Part shown: one piece after another, positions 46,384-58,647 of the stretch
Layout: each line of letters opens with the position of its first letter
Numbering within the stretch: position 1 is the first letter of the stretch
From: Escherichia coli
GTDB taxonomy: Bacteria > Pseudomonadota > Gammaproteobacteria > Enterobacterales > Enterobacteriaceae
DNA: 64,000 nucleotides
Assembly (NCBI RefSeq): GCF_003790525.1
Contig: NZ_CP033635.1
Direction: 5' to 3' (one strand)
The notes under the pieces: generated by a model
Seen by the model: only the letters and a program-made list of their open reading frames with translations
The model's database searches: none
What the model was told of the DNA's origin: nothing
Program-made: the position numbers and the translations under genes

Positions 46384-47319
46384 ATGGCACTGCCAATTCT
46401 GTTAGATTGCGACCCAGGTCATGACGACGCTATCGCAATCGTTCTCGCCCTCGCCTCACCAGAGCTTGATGTCAAAGCAATTACGTCTTCCGCCGGAAAC
46501 CAGACACCAGAAAAAACCTTACGCAATGTTCTGTGTATGCTGACCTTGCTTAATCGCACCGATATTCCGGTAGCAAGCGGTGCGGTAAAACCATTAATGC
46601 GTGATTTGATTATCGCGGACAATGTGCACGGCGAAAGCGGTCTCGACGGCCCGGCATTACCGGAACCGACGTTCGCACCGCAAAACTGTACGGCGGTGGA
46701 GCTGATGGCGAAAACGCTGTGTGAAAGTGAGGAACCTGTCACCATTGTTTCTACCGGACCGCAAACTAACGTTGCCTTGCTGCTCAATAGCCACCCGGAA
46801 CTGCATAGCAAAATTGCCCGTATCGTGATTATGGGCGGCGCAATGGGGCTTGGTAACTGGACGCCTGCGGCTGAATTTAATATTTACGTTGACCCGGAAG
46901 CGGCAGAAATTGTCTTCCAGTCAGGGATCCCGGTGGTGATGGCCGGTCTGGATGTTACTCACAAAGCACAAATTCACGTTGAGGACACCGAGCGTTTCCG
47001 CGCCATTGGCAACCCTGTTTCAACCATTGTTGCCGAACTGCTGGATTTCTTCCTCGAATATCATAAAGACGAAAAATGGGGCTTTGTCGGCGCACCGCTG
47101 CATGACCCATGCACCATCGCCTGGCTGTTAAAACCGGAGTTGTTTACCACTGTTGAGCGCTGGGTTGGCGTGGAAACACAAGGGAAATATACCCAAGGTA
47201 TGACGGTTGTTGATTATTATTATCTGACTGGCAATAAACCGAATGCCACTGTAATGGTCGATGTTGATCGTCAGGGCTTTGTTGATTTACTGGCCGATCG
47301 TCTGAAATTTTACGCTTAA
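46384..47319 (+). CDS. rihA: Pyrimidine-specific ribonucleoside hydrolase RihA
   Basis: 311 aa from [16 protein letters not shown] (IU-nucleoside hydrolase DxDxxxDD motif). Confidence 0.9.
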
Positions 47320-47332
47320 CACACGTCATTGA

Positions 47333-47372
47333 TTAAGATCACCACGCGTTACCTGGGTGGTCTTAATCTGTT
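47333..47372 (+). terminator. Hairpin after rihA
   Basis: TAAGATCACC...GGTGGTCTTA inverted repeat then T-rich run. Confidence 0.45.
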
Positions 47373-47402
47373 TATCTCTTTTTCTTTCAAGATATAAATG
47401 CA

Positions 47403-49073
47403 ATGGATAATGCAGAACTCGCCATTGGTATCGATCTCGGTACTACCAATAGTTTAATTGCCGTCTGGAAAGACGGTGCCGCGCAATTAATTCCAAATAA
47501 GTTCGGTGAATATTTAACACCATCCATAATTAGCATGGATGAAAATAATCATATTTTAGTCGGAAAACCGGCTGTATCACGGCGTACTTCGCATCCGGAT
47601 AAAACGGCAGCGTTATTTAAACGTGCAATGGGCAGTAATACCAACTGGCGGTTAGGCAGCGACACATTTAACGCGCCAGAACTGTCCTCTTTGGTATTAC
47701 GCTCATTAAAAGAAGATGCCGAAGAATTTCTGCAACGTCCGATTAAAGATGTGGTGATCTCCGTTCCGGCTTATTTCAGCGATGAACAACGCAAGCATAC
47801 CCGTTTAGCAGCGGAGTTAGCCGGGTTAAATGCGGTACGCTTAATTAATGAACCCACAGCAGCTGCGATGGCATATGGCCTGCATACGCAACAAAATACC
47901 CGCTCGCTGGTTTTTGATCTCGGTGGCGGCACGTTTGACGTCACGGTGCTCGAATACGCCACGCCGGTGATTGAAGTTCACGCCTCCGCTGGCGACAACT
48001 TTCTTGGCGGCGAAGATTTTACTCATATGCTGGTGGATGAAGTTTTAAAACGCGCCGCAGTGGCTAAAAACATGCTCAACGAAAGTGAGCTGGCAGCCCT
48101 GTACACCAGCGTGGAAGCGGCAAAATGTAGCAATCAATTACCGCTGCAAATTAGCTGGCAGTATCAGGAAGAAACGCGTGAGTGCGAATTTTACGAGAAC
48201 GAACTGGAAGATTTGTGGTTGCCGCTGCTCAATCGCTTGCGAGTGCCGATTGAACAGGCGTTGCGCGATGCACGTCTGAAGCCAAGTCAAATCGACAGTC
48301 TGGTGCTGGTTGGCGGCGCATCACAAATGCCGCTGGTGCAGCGAATCGCCGTGCGTCTGTTTGGCAAATTACCGTATCAAAGTTACGATCCGAGCACCAT
48401 TGTCGCGCTGGGCGCAGCAATCCAGGCCGCCTGCCGCTTACGCAGTGAAGATATTGAAGAAGTGATCCTCACTGATATTTGCCCCTACTCCTTAGGTGTT
48501 GAAGTTAACCGCCAGGGCGTTTCCGGCATTTTCTCACCGATTATTGAACGAAATACCACTGTGCCGGTGTCGCGAGTAGAAACTTACTCGACCATGCACC
48601 CGGAGCAGGATTCAATAACGATTAATGTTTATCAGGGAGAAAATCACAAAGTTAAGAATAATATACTGGTTGAATCCTTTGATGTTCCGCTGAAGAAAAC
48701 CGGGGCTTATCAGTCTATTGATATTCGCTTTAGTTATGATATTAACGGATTGCTTGAAGTTGACGTGCTTCTGGAAGACGGCAGCGTTAAGTCCAGAGTC
48801 ATTAACCACAGCCCGGTAACGTTAAGTACCCAGCAAATTGAAGAGAGTCGGGCACGGTTATCCGCATTAAAAATTTATCCGCGCGATATGCTCATCAACC
48901 GTACCTTTAAAGCCAAACTGGAAGAGTTATGGGCGCGGGCGCTGGGTGACGAGCGAGAAGAGATTGGCCGGGTAATCACCGATTTTGATGCGGCGCTGCA
49001 ATCAAACGATATGGCCCGCGTCGATGAAGTTCGTCGACGGGCGAGCGATTATTTGGCCATTGAGATCCCTTAA
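47403..49073 (+). CDS. hscC: Hsp70-family chaperone HscC (Hsc62)
   Basis: 556 aa; actin-like ATPase motifs IDLGTTNS, DLGGGTFD; no C-terminal EEVD-type lid tail. Confidence 0.9.
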   Translation: MDNAELAIGIDLGTTNSLIAVWKDGAAQLIPNKFGEYLTPSIISMDENNHILVGKPAVSRRTSHPDKTAALFKRAMGSNTNWRLGSDTFNAPELSSLVLRSLKEDAEEFLQRPIKDVVISVPAYFSDEQRKHTRLAAELAGLNAVRLINEPTAAAMAYGLHTQQNTRSLVFDLGGGTFDVTVLEYATPVIEVHASAGDNFLGGEDFTHMLVDEVLKRAAVAKNMLNESELAALYTSVEAAKCSNQLPLQISWQYQEETRECEFYENELEDLWLPLLNRLRVPIEQALRDARLKPSQIDSLVLVGGASQMPLVQRIAVRLFGKLPYQSYDPSTIVALGAAIQAACRLRSEDIEEVILTDICPYSLGVEVNRQGVSGIFSPIIERNTTVPVSRVETYSTMHPEQDSITINVYQGENHKVKNNILVESFDVPLKKTGAYQSIDIRFSYDINGLLEVDVLLEDGSVKSRVINHSPVTLSTQQIEESRARLSALKIYPRDMLINRTFKAKLEELWARALGDEREEIGRVITDFDAALQSNDMARVDEVRRRASDYLAIEIP

Positions 49074-49080
49074 ACACGGC

Positions 49081-49180
<100 letters not shown>

Positions 49181-49183
49181 CAT

Positions 49184-50635
49184 CTAACTGAACAACATCG
49201 CGATTTTACCGATCGCGTAACCTATCACCAGCACCGTTAAGCTGATTTTGATAATGCTGGTAATGCTCTGTGGTTTTTCATCCTCATCATTTTTTTCTTC
49301 GTGGTTTTCAGGTGTTGGCTCATCGACATCTTCATCCTCCGGCTCGAGTTTCACTTTCGTCAACAGCATCCGCGTGATAATGGCCTCTAATGGATGAGCA
49401 TCTCCACCTTCCAGCCTTGTATTAAGACGGGCCAGCATCTCTTGTTTCGGGAACGCTTCCAGCACAACCTGTTCCGCTACCCGATACAAATCCAGTAACG
49501 GTGAATCTTGTTCTGTCTCGCTACCGACTCTCGATTTCCACCATGCCCATGCTTTGCGCTTGAAGAATAACGACTCAATAAACGATTGACCTAACGGCGA
49601 TAATTTTCCGCTATGTAAAATTTCCGCCCATAACAGCCGCGTCCGGGCGCTCTCACCAGGAACATATTTCAACGGTTGACCTTGCGCATCTATCATGCTT
49701 CGCGCTTCGATAACCATCACTAATAACGCGAAATAATCCGGGCAATGACGCTTGCTCCACTGCAACAACAAATTATCAGCTTGTGTAGATGGGTAACTCT
49801 CCCGGTATGCGCAGAGATCGGCAAGCAGGCTTTCCCCCTCGCCACAGTACAACCGTTGCGCACACTGGTAATAACGGGCATCTTCGCTTTCTGGATTTTC
49901 TGCTTGCCACTGTTGGGCAACAGGAATAAGTTCCGCCATACCTGTTTTCACCGAGCTGTACCAGCGCAACAGTTTGCGATGTAACTTGACATCATCAGGA
50001 ATGAACCACGGACCTTCCATTGCCATAAACGCAGTGACATAGTCAGGATGGTAACGGCAGCAGCGTTCCAGCGCGAAGTAATACTCAACAGTCTGGTTCT
50101 GCAACGCGACGGGATATTCCAGAAGGCTAAGGAAATCGAAACAATCACCAGCCTGAATGGCCTCAAGAAAAGCCTCCCTTTCTTCCTCATCCATTCCTTC
50201 GCTGTCATTAAACGAATGCCAGTTCAAACGCTCTGCCAGCAAAGAAGCACAATTTAATGAAAGATATCGCGCTTCTATAGCGACTGCACACAGCGGCCAG
50301 CGTAATTGATCGACATCCTCCATGTTCCAGGTATTTAATTGCTGAATAAATTTCTGCCAGGCGGAGGGCTGAAAACGATCACTTTCAGAATCCAGTAATG
50401 CCCTGAATGCACGTAGTATTTCATGTTCAGCGGCGGCATCTTTTTCTTCATCATCTGCTTCCTCGACAGGATTTACCGCCAGTCGCAGCGCCTCTTCATA
50501 GGCCTGGCGTAATGCTTTAAACCCCTGCGGATCGGTTTCGGGATGACACAACGGTAAGCGAGCAAGATAAGCCTGGCGGATAATGTCTATTTGCGTCGTG
50601 CTTTCAATTTCGAGGATTTGCCAACATGTTTTCAT
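49184..50635 (-). CDS. djlC: J-domain-like co-chaperone DjlC (YbeV), C-terminally membrane-anchored
   Basis: 483 aa; N-terminal J-like region with HPE in place of HPD; acidic linker; C-terminal hydrophobic segment [26 protein letters not shown]. Confidence 0.85.
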
Positions 50636-51339
50636 AGGTCGCTCACATCCTTAAGCGTTACCGGGCATTCAGGCTGGACAGTTAATGGCTGCCAGGGAAG
50701 CGTGGCATAGAAACGGTCGCTTCCCGCTGCCAGCTCTTCGAACATCCGACTCCCGGCGCTATCGTATTTGTACAGGGTTAGCGCCTCGCGTAGCGAAGCG
50801 TTGTCTTCGCACTGAGAAGATTGCCAGTAGAGACGCCCTAACGAATAGGCGGAAAAATAGTGCATCCAGCTGTGATAGTAATGGTGTGCTCGTATATAGA
50901 CGCGCGATTGCAGCCATAAACTCTCGTCTTCCGTCAGCCACTTGTTGAGCACACCAACCCGTGATAAAAAACCCATCCGCACATAATCCCAGGCTTTGAT
51001 TCCCCCTTCCCCACAACACATAGCGGTTTGGGCAACGAATTGGGTATAAATCAACCCTCTCTCCGAGCCGCCAGCAATTAATGCTTTCCACTCTTCAGGG
51101 GAAGAGCGATGCCATGTCAGATATAAGCCAGCTAAATCATTGGCATGACCATCATCGGTCATCTGATAAATAGTCTGAATTAAATCATCACGATTATTTA
51201 TTCCCCAGGATGATGAGAGATCGAATTCTTTTATCCCGGTATACATTTTTGGCGAGTCATGCGCGGGCTTGCAACCCTGATTAAGTATTTCCATGGGCGT
51301 AGAAAGCGCAAAAAGAAGATATTGTTCTTCCTTATTCAT
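50632..51339 (-). CDS. ybeU: DUF1266 protein YbeU, translationally coupled to djlC
   Basis: 235 aa; paralog of YbeR (about 60% identity by eye); stop overlaps djlC start (ATGA). Confidence 0.85.
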
Positions 51340-51440
51340 TTGTTAATAATCCCTTATGTGCATTAACTGACTACTTTTTTATTATTGATGAGTATAAACT
51401 TGACGCTTTCAAAATAAAAAGAAAATCGAAGCATTCACTC

Positions 51441-51995
51441 ATGAATAAAAAATTAATGTATATATTCGCAATATTTATAGTTGCAGCAATAACCTGTATT
51501 AGCCAACCCAAGAAAACGACGTTGCGTGATAAAGCCATGGCGAATTATGCCTTTGATTATTTAAGCTCACCGGGCAGTCTTCCATTCACCACGGCAGCCA
51601 CGGAGCTTTCCGCGATTCATGGTCACTCAACGTCGCAATATCGCCTTGGAGAATTTTATCTTCATGGTAGCGACGGTAAACCACTGGATTATACACAGGC
51701 GAGATACTGGTATGAGCAATCAGCGGAACAGGAAAATCCACGCGCGCAAAGTAAACTGGGGTGGATCTACCTCAAAGGTCTGGGGGTCAAACCCGATACC
51801 CGTAAAGCAATTCTCTGGTATAAGGAAGCAGCTGAACAAGGGTATGCTCATGCTCAATATACTTTAGGTTTGATCTACAGAAACGGCTCAGGTATTAATG
51901 TTAACCATTATGAATCTCAAAAATGGTTAAAACTGGCCGCCAAACAACATTACAAAAACGCGGAAAGATTACTTGCCGGGCTTCCCGCACATTAA
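51441..51995 (+). CDS. ybeT: Sel1-repeat protein YbeT with N-terminal signal/anchor
   Basis: 184 aa; hydrophobic N-terminus [19 protein letters not shown]; repeated AxxWY..AAEQG Sel1-like units. Confidence 0.85.
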
Positions 51996-52004
51996 CGTCG
52001 ACTG

Positions 52005-53432
52005 TCACCCGAACAGATGGAGTATTTTCCCTATCAAACCGGCAAAGATAAAAATGTAGAAAATAATTTTGATGACGCCCAGGCAGCCCGGCCCACCATC
52101 GTCAACGGGCATCGACTGCGGTTGCGGCTCCGGTTCGACGGTTTGCTTCTCGGTAAAATTTGCCGCCTGAATTAATAATCGACGAATCATTAATGCTTCC
52201 AGTGGACAACGATCTTCTGCATCAAGGCGGCTGACGATCGGCATTAATGATTCTTCTGTCGGTTGGCTGGCCTGAACTAATTGTTTAGCAACTAAATATA
52301 ATGGCCATAAGGGATGTTCTGTATCACGCGTGAGTGAGATCCGCGGCTTACGTCCTTTGTGCAAAACCATCTCGACCAGAGAACGCCCCAGCGCAGAGAG
52401 TTTTTCATCACTGAGTATTTCGTATAAATGAAAACGCGTACGAGCGCTGTCACCAGGGACATAAAGTAGCGGTTTTCCCTGATCGTTAACCAGATCACGC
52501 GCTTCAATCATCATCACCACTAACGGGTAATAATCGACCCGATGCTGACGGCACCATTGCAACATTAAAGCATCCGCCTGGGTGGAGGGATACTCGCGCC
52601 AGTAGTCACAAAGTTCTGCCAGCAGGCTTTCGCCTTCTCCACAATAGACGCGTTGCGCGTATTCATAATAACGCGCATCTTCATTATCAGGTTCAGCTTC
52701 CCGCCACGACCGGGCGTAATCCAGAAGTTCGGGGATATCCAGACGGCTTGTGCTATACCAGCGGAGTAAATTTCTGTGCAAATTTGCATCATCGGGGATA
52801 ATCACTGCGCGATGTTGCGCTAAATACAATGTCAGCCATTCTGGATGCGATGACCAAATCCGAGCGAACATTTGGTAAAAATCAATGGTGTCATTTTGTA
52901 CGGCAACGGGCAGATGCAGAATGGTCTGGAAGTTAAAAACATTCCCCTTCGCAATGGCATATAAAAAGGATTCCAGTTCTTCTTCGTCTATTTCCCCGAC
53001 GTTTTCCTCCTGCAACCACCGCAATCTTTCTGCTAATAACACCACGCACTCGAAGGATAAATGGGCAGTGTTCATGGCTATTGTGCACAGCGACCAGCGT
53101 AATTCATCAATATCTTCCATCGAGCAATAATTTAATTGCTGAATGAATCGCTGCCAGGCAGAGGGCAGAAAACGTTCGCTATCAGAGGCGAGTAACGCAC
53201 GAAAGGCGAGCAGAATTTCATGTTCTGCAACTTCATGTTCTTCTGGTTGCCAAACAGATTTAGCAGGCGACTGCGCAATCCGTAGCGCGTCCTCATACGC
53301 CTGACGAAGTTGTTTAAAACCCTGCGGATCGGTTTCTGGATGAAAGGACGGTAACAGCGCCAGATAAGCGCGGCGGATAATATCGACGTCAGTCGTTTCC
53401 TCTATTTCGAGAATCTTCCAGCAATTTTTCAT
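52005..53432 (-). CDS. djlB: J-domain-like co-chaperone DjlB (YbeS), C-terminally membrane-anchored
   Basis: 475 aa; full-length paralog of DjlC; HPE motif; C-terminal hydrophobic tail [24 protein letters not shown]. Confidence 0.85.
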
Positions 53433-54136
53433 AGGTCGCTCATATCCTTAAGCGTTTCCGGGCATGTGGGGTAGTCAGCCAGTGGTTGCCAGGGTAAGGT
53501 CGCGTAATATGCATCGTCACTGGCAAATAATTGATAAAACATATCATTGCCGGAATCGTCGTATTCTTTACGCGCTAAGAATTCACGTAATAAAGGCAGA
53601 TCATCATCCTCGGGAGACTGCCAATATTGCCGACCAAAGGTATAACCGGCAAAGTATTGCCGCCAGTGACTATAATAACGTAGAGCCCGTAGATGAATGC
53701 GCGACTGGATCCACAGGCTTTCTTCTTCACTCAACCAGTTATTAAGTACGCCCATTCGGCTTAAAAAACCCATCCGGACATAATCCCAGGCTTTAATTCC
53801 TCCCTCACCACAGCATTCGGCGGTGCTGGCGACAAATTGCGCATAAGCCTGACCTTGCTCATTTAATTCAGCAAGATAGTCACGCCATTCACATGGCGAA
53901 TAACGAAACCAGCAGTGATAAAACCCTGCCAACCGCGCGGCATGACCGTTATCAATCATTCGGTAAATTGTGCGCAGCAGGTCATCACGGTCATCAATTC
54001 TCCAGGAGGAAGAAAGGTCAAAAAAGCGTGTACCTAAATACATTTTGGGGGATGAATGCGAAGGTAAACAGCATTCATTGCGTATTTCCATCGGAGTGGA
54101 AAGTGCAAACAATATTTTTTGCGACTCCATGTCCAT
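53429..54136 (-). CDS. ybeR: DUF1266 protein YbeR, translationally coupled to djlB
   Basis: 235 aa from ATG 54136 (ORF-track start 54163 is an extension); paralog of YbeU; ATGA overlap with djlB. Confidence 0.8.
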
Positions 54137-54299
54137 ATAATTCATCCTTAAATATTCATTCAATGAATATTAACCACGTTGCGAGGCTCATTTATTTATA
54201 CTTTTCTGACGCAACATAATACGCATAAAATAAGGCTTACGCAAAAATGGAACACATAAAAATATAATATGTTTTATATGCAACCATAAGGAAATGATA

Positions 54300-55277
54300 A
54301 TGATTTTTACGTCAAGTTGCTGCGATAATTTATCAATAGAAAAGATTGTTAAACGTGCTGAAAAAGGCGATAGCGAGGCTCAATATATTGTTGGGTTTTA
54401 TTATAATCGCGATAGCGCAATTGACTCTCCGGACGACGAAAAAGCCTTCTACTGGCTGAAGCTTGCCGCTGAACAAGGCCATTGTGAAGCACAATATTCC
54501 TTAGGGCGGAAATACTCCGAGGATAAAAGCCGTCATAAAGATAATGAGCAAGCCATCTTTTGGCTGAAAAAAGCTGCCCTACAAGGCCATACTTTCGCTT
54601 CCAACGCCCTTGGCTGGATACTGGATCGTGGAGAAGACCCCAACTATAAAGAAGCGGTTGCCTGGTATCAGATAGCCGCGGAGAGCGGAATGCCTTATGC
54701 GCAAAATAATCTTGGATGGATGTACAGAAATGGTAACGGAGTCGCACAAGACTATGCGCTGGCATTTTTCTGGTACAAACAAGCTGCATTACAAGGCCAT
54801 AGTTACGCGCAAGACAACCTGGCCGATCTCTATAAAGACGGAGAAGGCGTTGCTCAAAACAAGACACTCGCCGCATTCTGGTATTTGAAAAGCGCACAGC
54901 AGGGTAATCGGCATGCCCAGTTTCAAATTGCATGGGATTATAACGCTGGCGAAGGGGTGGACCAGGACTATAAGCAAGCGATGTACTGGTATCTGAAGGC
55001 TGCCGCTCAGGAAAGCGTCGGCGCTTACGTCAACATCGGTTATATGTATAAACATGGACAAGGCGTTGAGAAAGATTATCAGGCCGCCTTTGAATGGTTT
55101 ATGAAAGCCGCTGAATGCAATGACGCCACTGCCTGGTATAACCTGGCCATTATGTATCACTACGGAGAAGGAAGACCTGTCGATCTCCGACAGGCTCTCG
55201 ACCTGTATCGTAAAGTTCAGGCATCCGGTACCAGGGATGTCAGTCAAGAAATCCGTGAGATTGAAGATTTACTGTAA
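54300..55277 (+). CDS. ybeQ: Sel1-repeat protein YbeQ
   Basis: 325 aa from ATG 54300 (better RBS spacing than 54294); at least 7 Sel1-like repeats. Confidence 0.85.
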   Translation: MIFTSSCCDNLSIEKIVKRAEKGDSEAQYIVGFYYNRDSAIDSPDDEKAFYWLKLAAEQGHCEAQYSLGRKYSEDKSRHKDNEQAIFWLKKAALQGHTFASNALGWILDRGEDPNYKEAVAWYQIAAESGMPYAQNNLGWMYRNGNGVAQDYALAFFWYKQAALQGHSYAQDNLADLYKDGEGVAQNKTLAAFWYLKSAQQGNRHAQFQIAWDYNAGEGVDQDYKQAMYWYLKAAAQESVGAYVNIGYMYKHGQGVEKDYQAAFEWFMKAAECNDATAWYNLAIMYHYGEGRPVDLRQALDLYRKVQASGTRDVSQEIREIEDLL

Positions 55278-55290
55278 GAGATAAAAACAA

Positions 55291-55315
55291 GGGCCGGGGA
55301 ATTTTATTCGGCCCA
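55291..55315. terminator. Hairpin between convergent ybeQ and ybeL
   Basis: GGGCCGGGGAATTTTATTCGGCCC. Confidence 0.45.
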
Positions 55316-55347
55316 TATTCTCTTTATTGCTGTGCGAAATCAGACCA

Positions 55348-55830
55348 TTAAGGCTCGAACGGGCGTCTCTGGAACTGGTCATGACCACATTTCGGGCATA
55401 GCGTCAGCACTTCCGGTGTGTAGATTGGGAGATGGAAATGACATTTCTCGCAGACCAGATTTCCCAGCCCTACCACTTCTCCGCTGTGATAAACCCCATG
55501 ATGATTGAGGTCCTGGAAAACTTCGCGCCATTCAAGCTGCGTTTTATCGGTGATGTCTGCCAGCTCCTGCCATAAGCTTTCTTTAATCACCCGCATAAAG
55601 ACGCTGTCAGATTCTTCTTTCAGGCTCTCTTCATAGCTCATGGCGAACTCTTCCAGGTCACGTCTGACAGCTCGCGTCAGCTCATCGACCTCGGTTCGCG
55701 TTAACTCCCCTGTTTTTATTACGCGCTCGCGCGCCTGCTCCACCAGTGCGTCGATATCACGTTCCCCATTACGCAGGCGTTCGCTCAGTGACGCGACCAG
55801 TTCACGGTAATATTGAGCAACCTTGTTCAT
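55348..55830 (-). CDS. ybeL: Zinc-ribbon protein YbeL (DUF1451)
   Basis: 160 aa; C-terminal CEKCHF...CPKCGH zinc-ribbon. Confidence 0.85.
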   Translation of the reverse strand: MNKVAQYYRELVASLSERLRNGERDIDALVEQARERVIKTGELTRTEVDELTRAVRRDLEEFAMSYEESLKEESDSVFMRVIKESLWQELADITDKTQLEWREVFQDLNHHGVYHSGEVVGLGNLVCEKCHFHLPIYTPEVLTLCPKCGHDQFQRRPFEP

Positions 55831-56064
55831 CGTTTCATCTCCCGGGTCGTTAACTGACTATAATAATAGACGTTCTTTGTTCCTTGCTTTGCTAATACGC
55901 CCACAAACTCTGTAAATTAATGTATGAATAATCCGGGCATCATTTCAACGTCGAGTGCGCGAAAGGCTGTTTTGACGCGGACGTTTGGGCTATGCTATGC
56001 GGATCTGAAAAACCACCTCAACGCTACATTTGTAGCCGTATTGAAAACAGGACCACTGGCTGCC

Positions 56065-58647
56065 ATGCAAGAGCAATACCGCCCGGAAGAGATAGAATCC
56101 AAAGTACAGCTTCATTGGGATGAGAAGCGCACATTTGAAGTAACCGAAGACGAGAGCAAAGAGAAGTATTACTGCCTGTCTATGCTTCCCTATCCTTCTG
56201 GTCGACTACACATGGGCCACGTACGTAACTACACCATCGGTGACGTGATCGCCCGCTACCAGCGTATGCTGGGCAAAAACGTCCTGCAGCCGATCGGCTG
56301 GGACGCGTTTGGTCTGCCTGCGGAAGGCGCGGCGGTGAAAAACAACACCGCTCCGGCACCGTGGACGTACGACAACATCGCATACATGAAAAACCAGCTC
56401 AAAATGCTGGGCTTTGGTTATGACTGGAGCCGCGAGCTGGCAACCTGTACGCCGGAATACTACCGTTGGGAACAGAAATTCTTCACCGAGCTGTATAAAA
56501 AAGGCCTGGTATATAAAAAGACTTCTGCGGTCAACTGGTGCCCGAACGACCAGACCGTACTGGCGAACGAACAAGTTATCGACGGCTGCTGCTGGCGCTG
56601 CGATACCAAAGTTGAACGTAAAGAGATCCCGCAGTGGTTTATCAAAATCACCGCTTACGCTGACGAGCTGCTTAACGATCTGGATAAACTGGATCACTGG
56701 CCAGACACCGTTAAAACCATGCAGCGTAACTGGATCGGTCGTTCCGAAGGCGTGGAAATCACCTTCAACGTTAACGACTATGACAACACGCTGACCGTTT
56801 ACACTACCCGTCCGGACACCTTTATGGGTTGTAGCTACCTGGCGGTAGCGGCGGGTCATCCGCTGGCGCAGAAAGCGGCGGAAAATAATCCTGAACTGGC
56901 GGCCTTTATTGACGAATGCCGTAACACCAAAGTTGCCGAAGCTGAAATGGCAACGATGGAGAAAAAAGGCGTCGATACTGGCTTTAAAGCGGTTCACCCA
57001 TTAACGGGCGAAGAAATTCCCGTTTGGGCAGCAAACTTCGTATTGATGGAGTACGGCACGGGCGCAGTTATGGCGGTTCCGGGTCACGACCAGCGCGACT
57101 ACGAGTTTGCCTCTAAATACGGCCTGAACATCAAACCGGTTATCCTGGCAGCTGACGGCTCTGAGCCAGATCTTTCTCAGCAAGCCCTGACTGAAAAAGG
57201 CGTTCTGTTCAACTCTGGCGAGTTCAACGGTCTTGACCATGAAGCGGCCTTCAACGCCATCGCCGATAAACTGACTGCGATGGGCGTTGGCGAGCGTAAA
57301 GTGAACTACCGCCTGCGCGACTGGGGTGTTTCCCGTCAACGTTACTGGGGCGCGCCAATTCCGATGGTAACGCTGGAAGACGGCACTGTGATGCCGACCC
57401 CGGACGACCAGCTGCCGGTGATCCTGCCGGAAGATGTGGTGATGGACGGTATTACCAGCCCGATTAAAGCAGATCCGGAGTGGGCAAAAACTACCGTTAA
57501 CGGTATGCCAGCGCTGCGTGAAACCGACACTTTCGACACCTTTATGGAGTCCTCCTGGTACTATGCGCGCTACACTTGCCCGGAGTACAAAGAAGGTATG
57601 CTGGATTCCAAAGCGGCTAACTACTGGCTGCCGGTGGATATCTACATTGGTGGTATCGAACACGCCATTATGCACCTGCTCTACTTCCGCTTCTTCCACA
57701 AACTGATGCGTGATGCAGGCATGGTGAACTCTGACGAACCAGCGAAACAGTTGCTGTGTCAGGGTATGGTGCTGGCAGATGCCTTCTACTATGTTGGCGA
57801 AAACGGCGAACGTAACTGGGTTTCCCCGGTTGATGCTATCGTTGAACGTGACGAGAAAGGCCGTATCGTGAAAGCGAAAGACGCGGCAGGTCATGAACTG
57901 GTTTATACCGGCATGAGCAAAATGTCCAAGTCGAAGAACAACGGTATCGACCCGCAGGTGATGGTTGAACGTTACGGCGCGGACACCGTTCGTCTGTTTA
58001 TGATGTTTGCTTCTCCGGCGGATATGACTCTCGAATGGCAGGAATCCGGCGTGGAAGGGGCTAACCGCTTCCTGAAACGTGTCTGGAAACTGGTGTACGA
58101 GCACACAGCAAAAGGTGATGTTGCGGCACTGAACGTTGATGCGCTGACTGAAGATCAGAAAGCGCTGCGTCGCGATGTGCATAAAACTATCGCTAAAGTG
58201 ACCGATGATATCGGCCGTCGTCAGACCTTCAACACCGCTATTGCGGCGATTATGGAGCTGATGAACAAACTGGCGAAAGCACCGACCGATAGCGAGCAGG
58301 ATCGCGCCCTGATGCAGGAAGCGCTGCTGGCGGTAATCCGTATGCTTAACCCGTTCACCCCACACATCTGCTTCACGCTGTGGCAGGAACTGAAAGGCGA
58401 AGGCGATATCGACAACGCGCCGTGGCCGGTTGCTGACGAAAAAGCGATGGTGGAAGACTCCACGCTGGTCGTGGTGCAGGTTAACGGTAAAGTCCGTGCA
58501 AAAATCACCGTTCCGGTGGACGCAACGGAAGAACAGGTTCGCGAACGTGCTGGCCAGGAACATCTGGTAGCAAAATATCTTGATGGCGTTACTGTACGTA
58601 AAGTGATTTACGTACCAGGTAAACTCCTCAATCTGGTCGTTGGCTAA
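56065..58647 (+). CDS. leuS: Leucyl-tRNA synthetase
   Basis: 860 aa from [15 protein letters not shown]; HIGH (HMGH) and KMSKS motifs; ORF-track start 55924 is an extension. Confidence 0.95.

Follow-up and report, generated by a model that had tools for sequence, protein, structure and literature searches.

The window, by which we mean the whole 64,000-nucleotide stretch of Escherichia coli DNA that was analysed, carries the genes hscC (plus strand), djlC (minus), ybeU (minus), ybeT (plus), djlB (minus), ybeR (minus), ybeQ (plus), ybeL (minus) and leuS (plus), in this order. The features that bear on the junction between ybeT and djlB are the following:

49184–51339, minus strand: ybeU-djlC operon, paralogous to ybeR-djlB (ORF list, RefSeq)
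51340–51440: AT-rich promoter region between the divergent genes ybeU and ybeT
51441–51995, plus strand: ybeT, encoding a 184-aa Sel1-repeat protein (ORF list, RefSeq CDS, Pfam Sel1 E=1e-30)
51954–51989, minus strand: candidate intrinsic terminator of the ybeR-djlB transcript (predicted from RNA folds)
51996–52004: spacer between the convergent stops, 9 bp, CGTCGACTG (sequence read and script)
52005–53432, minus strand: djlB, encoding a 475-aa tail-anchored J-domain protein (ORF list, RefSeq CDS)
52476–52575, plus strand: C-rich, G-poor stretch in the ybeT read-through RNA (C 32%, G 16%)
53429–54136, minus strand: ybeR (DUF1266), the upstream gene of the ybeR-djlB operon (Pfam DUF1266 E=5e-45)

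Pfam profiles identify Sel1 repeats in both YbeT and YbeQ and a DUF1266 domain in YbeR, and the DnaJ match in DjlB is weak; homologues of DjlB carry the PF27158 domain (DjlB_C) in precomputed annotation. The stop codon of ybeR overlaps the start of djlB by 4 nt. DjlB and DjlC display 49% identity, and YbeR and YbeU 61%, values by which the two pairs are judged to be old paralogues. The GC content of ybeT, as computed by script, is 43% when compared to about 48% in the neighbouring genes, and the ORFs are intact and full-length in about 3,700 genomes. Promoter fusions of ybeT and ybeU have previously been described as candidate SlyA/H-NS targets (PMC7417354), and a preprint reports a ybeT TraDIS signal after phage challenge that was not reproduced by its own knockout. 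A PADLOC search with six proteins of the locus gave no meaningful match to a defence system.

The genes ybeT and djlB face each other tail to tail. The stop codon of ybeT is TAA (51993–51995, plus strand), and the TGA stop of djlB appears as TCA on the plus strand (52005–52007); both were read directly in the sequence, are found in the ORF list and were confirmed by script. The stop positions and the 9-bp gap given in a preliminary description of this DNA are exact to the base by the sequence read, the ORF list, the script and the RefSeq annotation. In agreement with this, NC_010498.1 (E. coli SMS-3-5) is 100% identical to 51300–52700 and has the same two CDS ends in its RefSeq annotation. K-12 and three further E. 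coli strains share the 9-bp gap, and strain AVS0051 keeps it despite a deletion within the locus. The distance is likewise 9 bp in Escherichia sp. MOD1 and E. whittamii, and 10 bp in two relatives further removed; hence, among the Escherichia-clade sequences examined, the length of the spacer is stable at 9–10 bp, and its bases are variable. That the gap is too small to hold any terminator is true, and trivially so for 9 bp. With so short a distance between the stops, any normal 3' UTR runs into the partner gene.

In order to place this distance in context, we went through the annotated genes in seven 50-kb segments of this genome (350 kb) and counted 41 convergent pairs, the gaps of which lie between −21 and +241 bp. 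Of the 40 pairs other than ybeT/djlB, 6 (about 15%) are separated by at most 9 bp or have overlapping coding sequences. The coding sequences overlap in yhbO/yhbP (−21), oxyR/sthA (−18), yhbQ/yhbS (−14) and zraR/purD (−4), short gaps separate yjaH/zraP (+1) and argG/yhbX (+7), and the yegI/yegD gap is 12 bp. The 9-bp gap between ybeT and djlB is not beyond chance or common practice; the feature is real yet ordinary. At the transcript level, 3' overlap has been observed in 276 of 370 E. coli convergent operons (75%), with a mean of 286 nt (Conway 2014, PMC4161252), the classic cases cited there being ilvA/ilvY and dnaQ/rnh. Since overlapping 3' ends are the default for E. coli convergent operons, ybeT/djlB is not marked out by overlap. 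The pair has the tail-to-tail, opposite-strand layout of this class (51995 versus 52005), and here too 3' complementarity is expected from late or leaky termination. It differs from the cases of Conway et al. in that the overlap is deduced from the geometry and a predicted hairpin alone, and in that expression is far lower. The proposal that the two transcripts must overlap in antisense at their 3' ends is thus sound in its geometry, and overlap is likely when both genes are transcribed, but such an overlap is routine.

The history of the junction was approached by comparison with Citrobacter amalonaticus, Salmonella enterica and one enterobacterial contig (L018). In all three, the locus consists of a Sel1 gene (minus), two successive DUF1266-Djl pairs (all plus) and hscC (minus), and ybeT is absent from it. 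The positional orthology of both DUF1266-Djl pairs is backed by an identity matrix. The distance from the stop of the djlB counterpart to the start of the co-directional ybeU counterpart is 11, 11 and 72 bp in the three, and in the genomes examined the djlB counterpart is thus internal to an operon-like array and needs no terminator of its own. The short spacer that separates djl from DUF1266 in the examined Salmonella and Citrobacter genomes is matched in E. coli by roughly the last 25 nt ahead of the ybeU start codon (GGGATTATT...ATG). Concomitantly, full-length YbeT homologues were found in Escherichia-like sequences only. These observations are best read as a segment of about 0.65 kb, comprising ybeT and its AT-rich promoter, that in the Escherichia lineage came to lie, inverted, between djlB and ybeU. 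From the few genomes sampled, we favour with some confidence an insertion in Escherichia over the alternative that the Salmonella/Citrobacter line lost ybeT. The HscC cochaperone locus was apparently rebuilt in the Escherichia lineage, and the junction would be a trace of this.

A further contig (L022) encodes a YbeT that is 71% identical; beyond a 10-bp gap, 220 bp of a defunct djlB 3' end follow. Because the 10-bp gap is kept beside a YbeT of only this identity, the junction is, on this comparison, old within the Escherichia clade. The idea that L022 represents an independent single module with ybeT was rejected, as the remnant of the djlB 3' end lies directly after ybeT; by its layout, the contig is a deletion derivative of the Escherichia arrangement. 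We also considered that a module of three genes (djl, DUF1266, Sel1) had been duplicated in tandem and that the junction marks the joint; this origin was rejected on account of the two DUF1266-Djl pairs without ybeT in Salmonella, Citrobacter and L018. Natural strains have lost one or the other partner, with an IS600 in ybeT in one case and an IS1-linked loss of ybeT-djlB-ybeR in another, and one natural deletion joins the djlB 3' end to ybeQ. When genome contigs were scanned with DjlB, the only matches were to two Escherichia species and to one contig of 384 bp in a Caballeronia assembly; this last match (97% identity over so short a contig) is probable contamination and was set aside.

On the djlB strand, a candidate intrinsic terminator is embedded within the last 14 codons of ybeT, 15–51 nt past the djlB stop. 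Its stem is formed by 51989–51981 pairing with 51967–51959 (8–9 bp including G·U pairs, with four G–C pairs, or five if the stem is counted as 9 bp). A loop of 13 nt closes it, U5 follows at 51958–51954, and RNA folds predict an energy of roughly −8.6 to −10.1 kcal/mol. The G+C-rich stem and the U-tract of a canonical intrinsic terminator are present, and the short loop is not. A consensus terminator scan of 47000–56500, in which loops were defined as 3–8 nt, found nothing at the ybeT/djlB junction; the hairpin was missed because its 13-nt loop exceeds the 8-nt limit. At a distance of 3.3 kb, the ybeL terminator is constructed in the same way (6-bp stem, 12-nt loop, −10.5 kcal/mol), and a K-12 Term-seq 3' end lies directly behind its hairpin. 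As a 12-nt loop is found in a terminator with Term-seq support, the 13-nt loop of the djlB hairpin is not disqualifying.

Several observations temper this prediction. The predicted energy of the hairpin is nothing out of the ordinary. A relaxed hairpin-plus-T scan of the 64 kb returned 80 plus-strand and 86 minus-strand sites, or about 1 site per 770 nt per strand; at this density, any given stop codon would have such a site within 60 nt with a probability of roughly 8%. Shuffled sequences fold about as well as the hairpin region (z −0.8 to −1.65). Among 9 Escherichia-clade sequences, the stem stays paired in 98.6% of the cells (minus strand) while the loop diverges; five stem pairs vary, on one side only (transitions), compensatory double changes are absent from the stem, and 49 of 500 shuffles equal that pairing. 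Two relatives, the most distant ones, have a minimum-energy fold that does not use this stem. The stem is at the same time part of the YbeT reading frame, and its conservation may be plain coding constraint. On the plus strand, the stem has A·C mismatches and is absent from the minimum-energy fold. The Term-seq supplements of Adams 2021 and the TERMITe supplements contain no 3' end in the hairpin U-tract, and djlB is barely transcribed in those data. On balance, the chance that the hairpin would stop a useful fraction of djlB transcripts is close to even, or slightly below. If it does terminate, the djlB 3' UTR would be about 51 nt long, of which at least about 42 nt would be complementary to full-length ybeT mRNA, so that the embedded position of the hairpin would ensure this complementarity rather than prevent it. 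The earlier view that the junction has no terminator consequently stands for the gap and does not stand overall, in light of the predicted hairpin and U5 on the djlB strand inside the ybeT end. Having no room for a terminator does not amount to having no terminator, as the element can sit in the coding sequence of the partner.

For the opposite transcript, no convincing terminator was found on the plus strand downstream of ybeT, and the region folds no better than shuffles. The first plus-strand candidate of the relaxed hairpin-plus-T scan lies 146 nt downstream of ybeT, a hairpin at 52101–52141 (−14.7 kcal/mol, with the tail TTTGCTTCT). It was examined as a ybeT terminator and rejected for want of conservation, as its arms differ in K-12 and as E. 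whittamii has a 6-nt deletion inside it. Further into djlB, the stretch at 52476–52575 has a C/G ratio of 2.0, above the 95th percentile of all 100-nt windows of the 64 kb, and represents by its composition a possible Rho loading region.

Published K-12 data reveal that ybeT and djlB are close to silent in laboratory conditions. The Term-seq tables of Adams 2021 contain no 3' end in ybeT, djlB or ybeU, whose expression is very low, and the TERMITe supplements have none at ybeT/djlB, where the genes are barely transcribed. In total RNA, djlB yields 2.9 sense and 6.9 antisense RPM and ybeT 1.2 sense and 3.1 antisense RPM, when compared to 411 sense and 5 antisense RPM for leuS; the strand column of this table conflicts with the dsRNA table for several genes, and the split between sense and antisense carries little weight. 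Both sense and antisense RPM of ybeT and djlB are lower, not higher, in rnc-14 and rnc-38, with very small numbers throughout. The dsRNA captured by p19 amounts, per whole gene, to 2.0–11.3 RPM for djlB and 1.9–8.9 RPM for ybeT (Huang 2020), which is below the dsRNA cluster threshold of that study (about 23 RPM per 200 bp); in the portion of its table of 21–22-nt duplexes that was covered, neither gene is listed, and the neighbouring ybeQ is. At the protein level, DjlB, DjlC and HscC fall under the detection limit of proteomics in exponentially growing cells. With so little transcription, collisions of polymerases and RNA duplexes would be rare events and, given the near-silence of both genes, no regulatory consequence is evident. 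A coupling under inducing conditions would nevertheless be compatible with silence in laboratory media.

Altogether, we consider it probable that the tight junction was left by a rearrangement in the Escherichia lineage, with the usual predicted 3' complementarity and without a dedicated regulatory device. By means of the inverted segment, the 3' end of ybeT would have come to sit 9–10 bp from the djlB stop. The ybeR-djlB transcript would then enter the end of ybeT and probably stop, at least in part, at the hairpin and U5, a stop that would produce the djlB 3' UTR of about 51 nt, while the ybeT transcript would continue antisense into djlB until Rho or chance ends transcription. Each time the two RNAs are produced together, their 3' ends would carry complementary sequence, which is the situation at most convergent operons of E. 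coli. As a regulatory finding the junction carries little weight, tight convergent 3' overlap being routine and the pair almost silent.

The preliminary description had gone further in suggesting that transcriptional interference or an RNase III-sensitive duplex links the expression of the two modules. Accordingly, convergent ybeT and ybeR-djlB would repress each other by collision or through RNase III and so coordinate two chaperone modules, which, if true, would provide an entry point for learning when this little-understood chaperone system is expressed. The overlap is indeed forced by geometry if both genes are transcribed, the 9–10 bp junction is conserved across the Escherichia clade, antisense reads equal or exceed sense reads over ybeT and djlB in K-12 (in a source table whose strand labels are unreliable) and p19-captured dsRNA is low but non-zero on both genes. 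However, about 15% of convergent pairs are just as tight, and the partners are lost independently in natural strains (IS600, djlB-ybeR deletions, IS1-linked loss). The K-12 data lend the link no support either, with 1–7 RPM against about 411 for leuS, 2–11 RPM of dsRNA that stays under the cluster threshold, and no rise in rnc-14 or rnc-38. We therefore find it very unlikely. A reading in which overlap does not occur in practice, either because Rho terminates transcription early within genes that are poorly translated and silenced by H-NS, or because the two genes are never co-expressed in the same cell, would agree with the very low RNA and protein levels, with the lack of listed 3' ends in K-12 Term-seq and with the ybeT/ybeU promoter region as a candidate SlyA/H-NS target. 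Yet ORFs that are intact in about 3,700 genomes imply complete mRNAs at times, and some p19-captured dsRNA reads fall on both genes, which leaves this reading distinctly unlikely.

The remaining alternatives give the hairpin a more active part. The 11-bp spacing between the djlB and ybeU counterparts in the ancestral-type array raises the thought that leaky read-through from the ybeR promoter past the hairpin, antisense to ybeT, restores co-expression of ybeR-djlB-ybeU-djlC and antagonises ybeT as a by-product. With about −9 to −10 kcal/mol and a 13-nt loop, the hairpin is a weak one, the relaxed scan has no further minus-strand hairpin-plus-T candidate from 51958 to 50135, and reads antisense to ybeT exceed sense reads in K-12, subject to the same unreliable strand labels. 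An untranslated antisense RNA of about 650 nt is normally a Rho target, so that the stretch of this length across ybeT would be expected to draw Rho, and a C-rich window is found at 51764–51665 on the minus-strand read-through RNA. Besides, the expression reads are too sparse to show continuity and ybeU has an AT-rich upstream region of its own; we regard restoration of the operon as unlikely. Such read-through would recall the excludon (review PMC7154746), in which a long antisense read-through crosses the opposite neighbour with possible co-expression of the genes beyond; the likeness applies only to this candidate reading. That the inverted ybeT made the ancestral four-gene cochaperone operon a two-state switch via a weak embedded terminator seems highly improbable; in such a switch, transcription from the ybeR promoter would either end behind djlB or read through, silencing YbeT and co-expressing ybeU-djlC, while active ybeT transcription would block read-through. 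Hardly to be expected, finally, is a collision-driven bidirectional termination of the SEnd-seq class, with the hairpin as a pausing element that defines both 3' ends. In the summary of Ju et al. 2019 given by Wang et al. (bioRxiv 10.1101/2022.10.23.513370), overlapping bidirectional terminators, for which ynaJ-uspE is the model site, are prevalent between E. coli convergent genes and unlike canonical terminators. They share with ybeT/djlB a hairpin-forming element at the convergent meeting point, the hairpin being right at the junction. According to the same summary, though, the mechanism needs dense polymerase traffic and is inefficient at low expression, whereas our pair is nearly silent; moreover, the ybeT/djlB hairpin lies within coding sequence and is fully paired only on the djlB strand, the mismatched plus-strand stem (A·C) not being formed in the minimum-energy fold.

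The same window contains a pair at which overlap can be followed in existing data. The genes ybeL and ybeQ have the same tail-to-tail layout as ybeT/djlB, and ybeL ends at its short-stem, large-loop hairpin. Part of the ybeL transcription passes this point and enters the Sel1 gene ybeQ in antisense; K-12 Term-seq places 3' ends at 675562 and 675677, and a Rho-dependent one at 675984. In contrast to the 9 bp between ybeT and djlB, the ybeL/ybeQ gap is 70 bp and holds the hairpin, and ybeL is well expressed; with these two properties, overlap and dsRNA are actually observed at this pair. In agreement with this, antisense reads exceed sense reads over ybeQ and a p19-captured duplex maps there.

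At the ybeL/ybeQ junction, which adjoins ybeT/djlB, a 3' overlap is documented in K-12. The ybeL 3' ends, together with one Rho-dependent end, were placed antisense within ybeQ by Term-seq (Adams 2021), while antisense reads exceed sense reads for ybeQ and a p19-captured RNase III duplex is located in this gene (Huang 2020, PMC7373196). The sense and antisense labels of Table S1c of PMC7373196 (total RNA) need care, because its strand column conflicts with both the dsRNA table and the genome, as we saw for several genes (ybeL, djlB, ybeT and gltL). In the window, the ybeL terminator hairpin looks bidirectional.

55291-55314: ybeL terminator hairpin, within 55278-55347, beside ybeQ (54300-55277)

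By identity comparison, the cochaperone, DUF1266 and Sel1 genes of the locus (window 49184-55277; loci L017-L022) evolve much faster than the flanking genes.

Protein identity between E. coli and the examined Salmonella/Citrobacter genomes (LeuS: Citrobacter genome and the enterobacterial contig L018 only)
DjlB: 47%
DjlC: 52-54%
YbeR: 64-66%
YbeU: 63-65%
YbeQ: 49-52%
HscC (flank): 79-83%
LeuS (flank): 96%

PADLOC returned no meaningful defence-system match for six proteins of the ybeT-djlB locus.

Natural E. coli also display decay across window positions 51300-54300 (loci L002, L016 and L023). A deletion in AVS0051 fuses the final 126 nt of djlB with the 3' portion of ybeQ, and ybeT is interrupted by IS600 in 2014C-3655; in MSB1_1D, ybeT-djlB-ybeR is gone through an IS1-linked loss and djlC carries an internal stop. 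Among complete genomes, 1127 of 5426 have no megablast match to 51300-52700. The metagenomic relative L022 encodes a YbeT that is 71% identical, directly followed by about 220 bp of a dead djlB 3' end (L022:5556-5780), with unrelated genes beyond. Its sequence shows that L022 derives from the Escherichia layout by deletion and lies elsewhere in the genome.

Other hairpins and palindromes were found in the window, along with a promoter-like match retrieved by a consensus scan.

47330-47380: strong hairpin, GATTAAGATCACC...GGTGGTCTTAATC, -16.7 kcal/mol, then a T-rich tail, between rihA and hscC
49074-49183: palindromes resembling REP elements, gccggatgcggcg...cgccttatccggcc, present in two copies, in the hscC/djlC convergent gap
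51653-51680, minus strand: sigma-70-like match, TTTACC, 16-nt spacer, TAAAAT

In K-12, a Term-seq 3' end at 683425, very strong with its score of about 91,000, matches the rihA-hscC hairpin; the Adams 2021 table files this end under an 'upstream ORF' heading, at -32 relative to hscC. The hscC/djlC gap measures 110 bp in the window versus 59 bp in K-12. The sigma-70-like element, a consensus match only, is antisense within ybeT and faces ybeU-djlC. For both ybeR and ybeQ the longest-ORF start lies upstream of the RefSeq start: TTG 54163 (244 aa) versus ATG 54136 (235 aa) for ybeR (window 53429-54163), and 54294 (327 aa) versus 54300 (325 aa) for ybeQ (window 54294-55277).

Finally, yegD, of the Hsp70 family, and the kinase gene yegI also form a very tight convergent pair, with a 12-bp gap.

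L009:5910-5923 (NC_010498.1 1005910-1005923): yegI/yegD junction, RefSeq annotation
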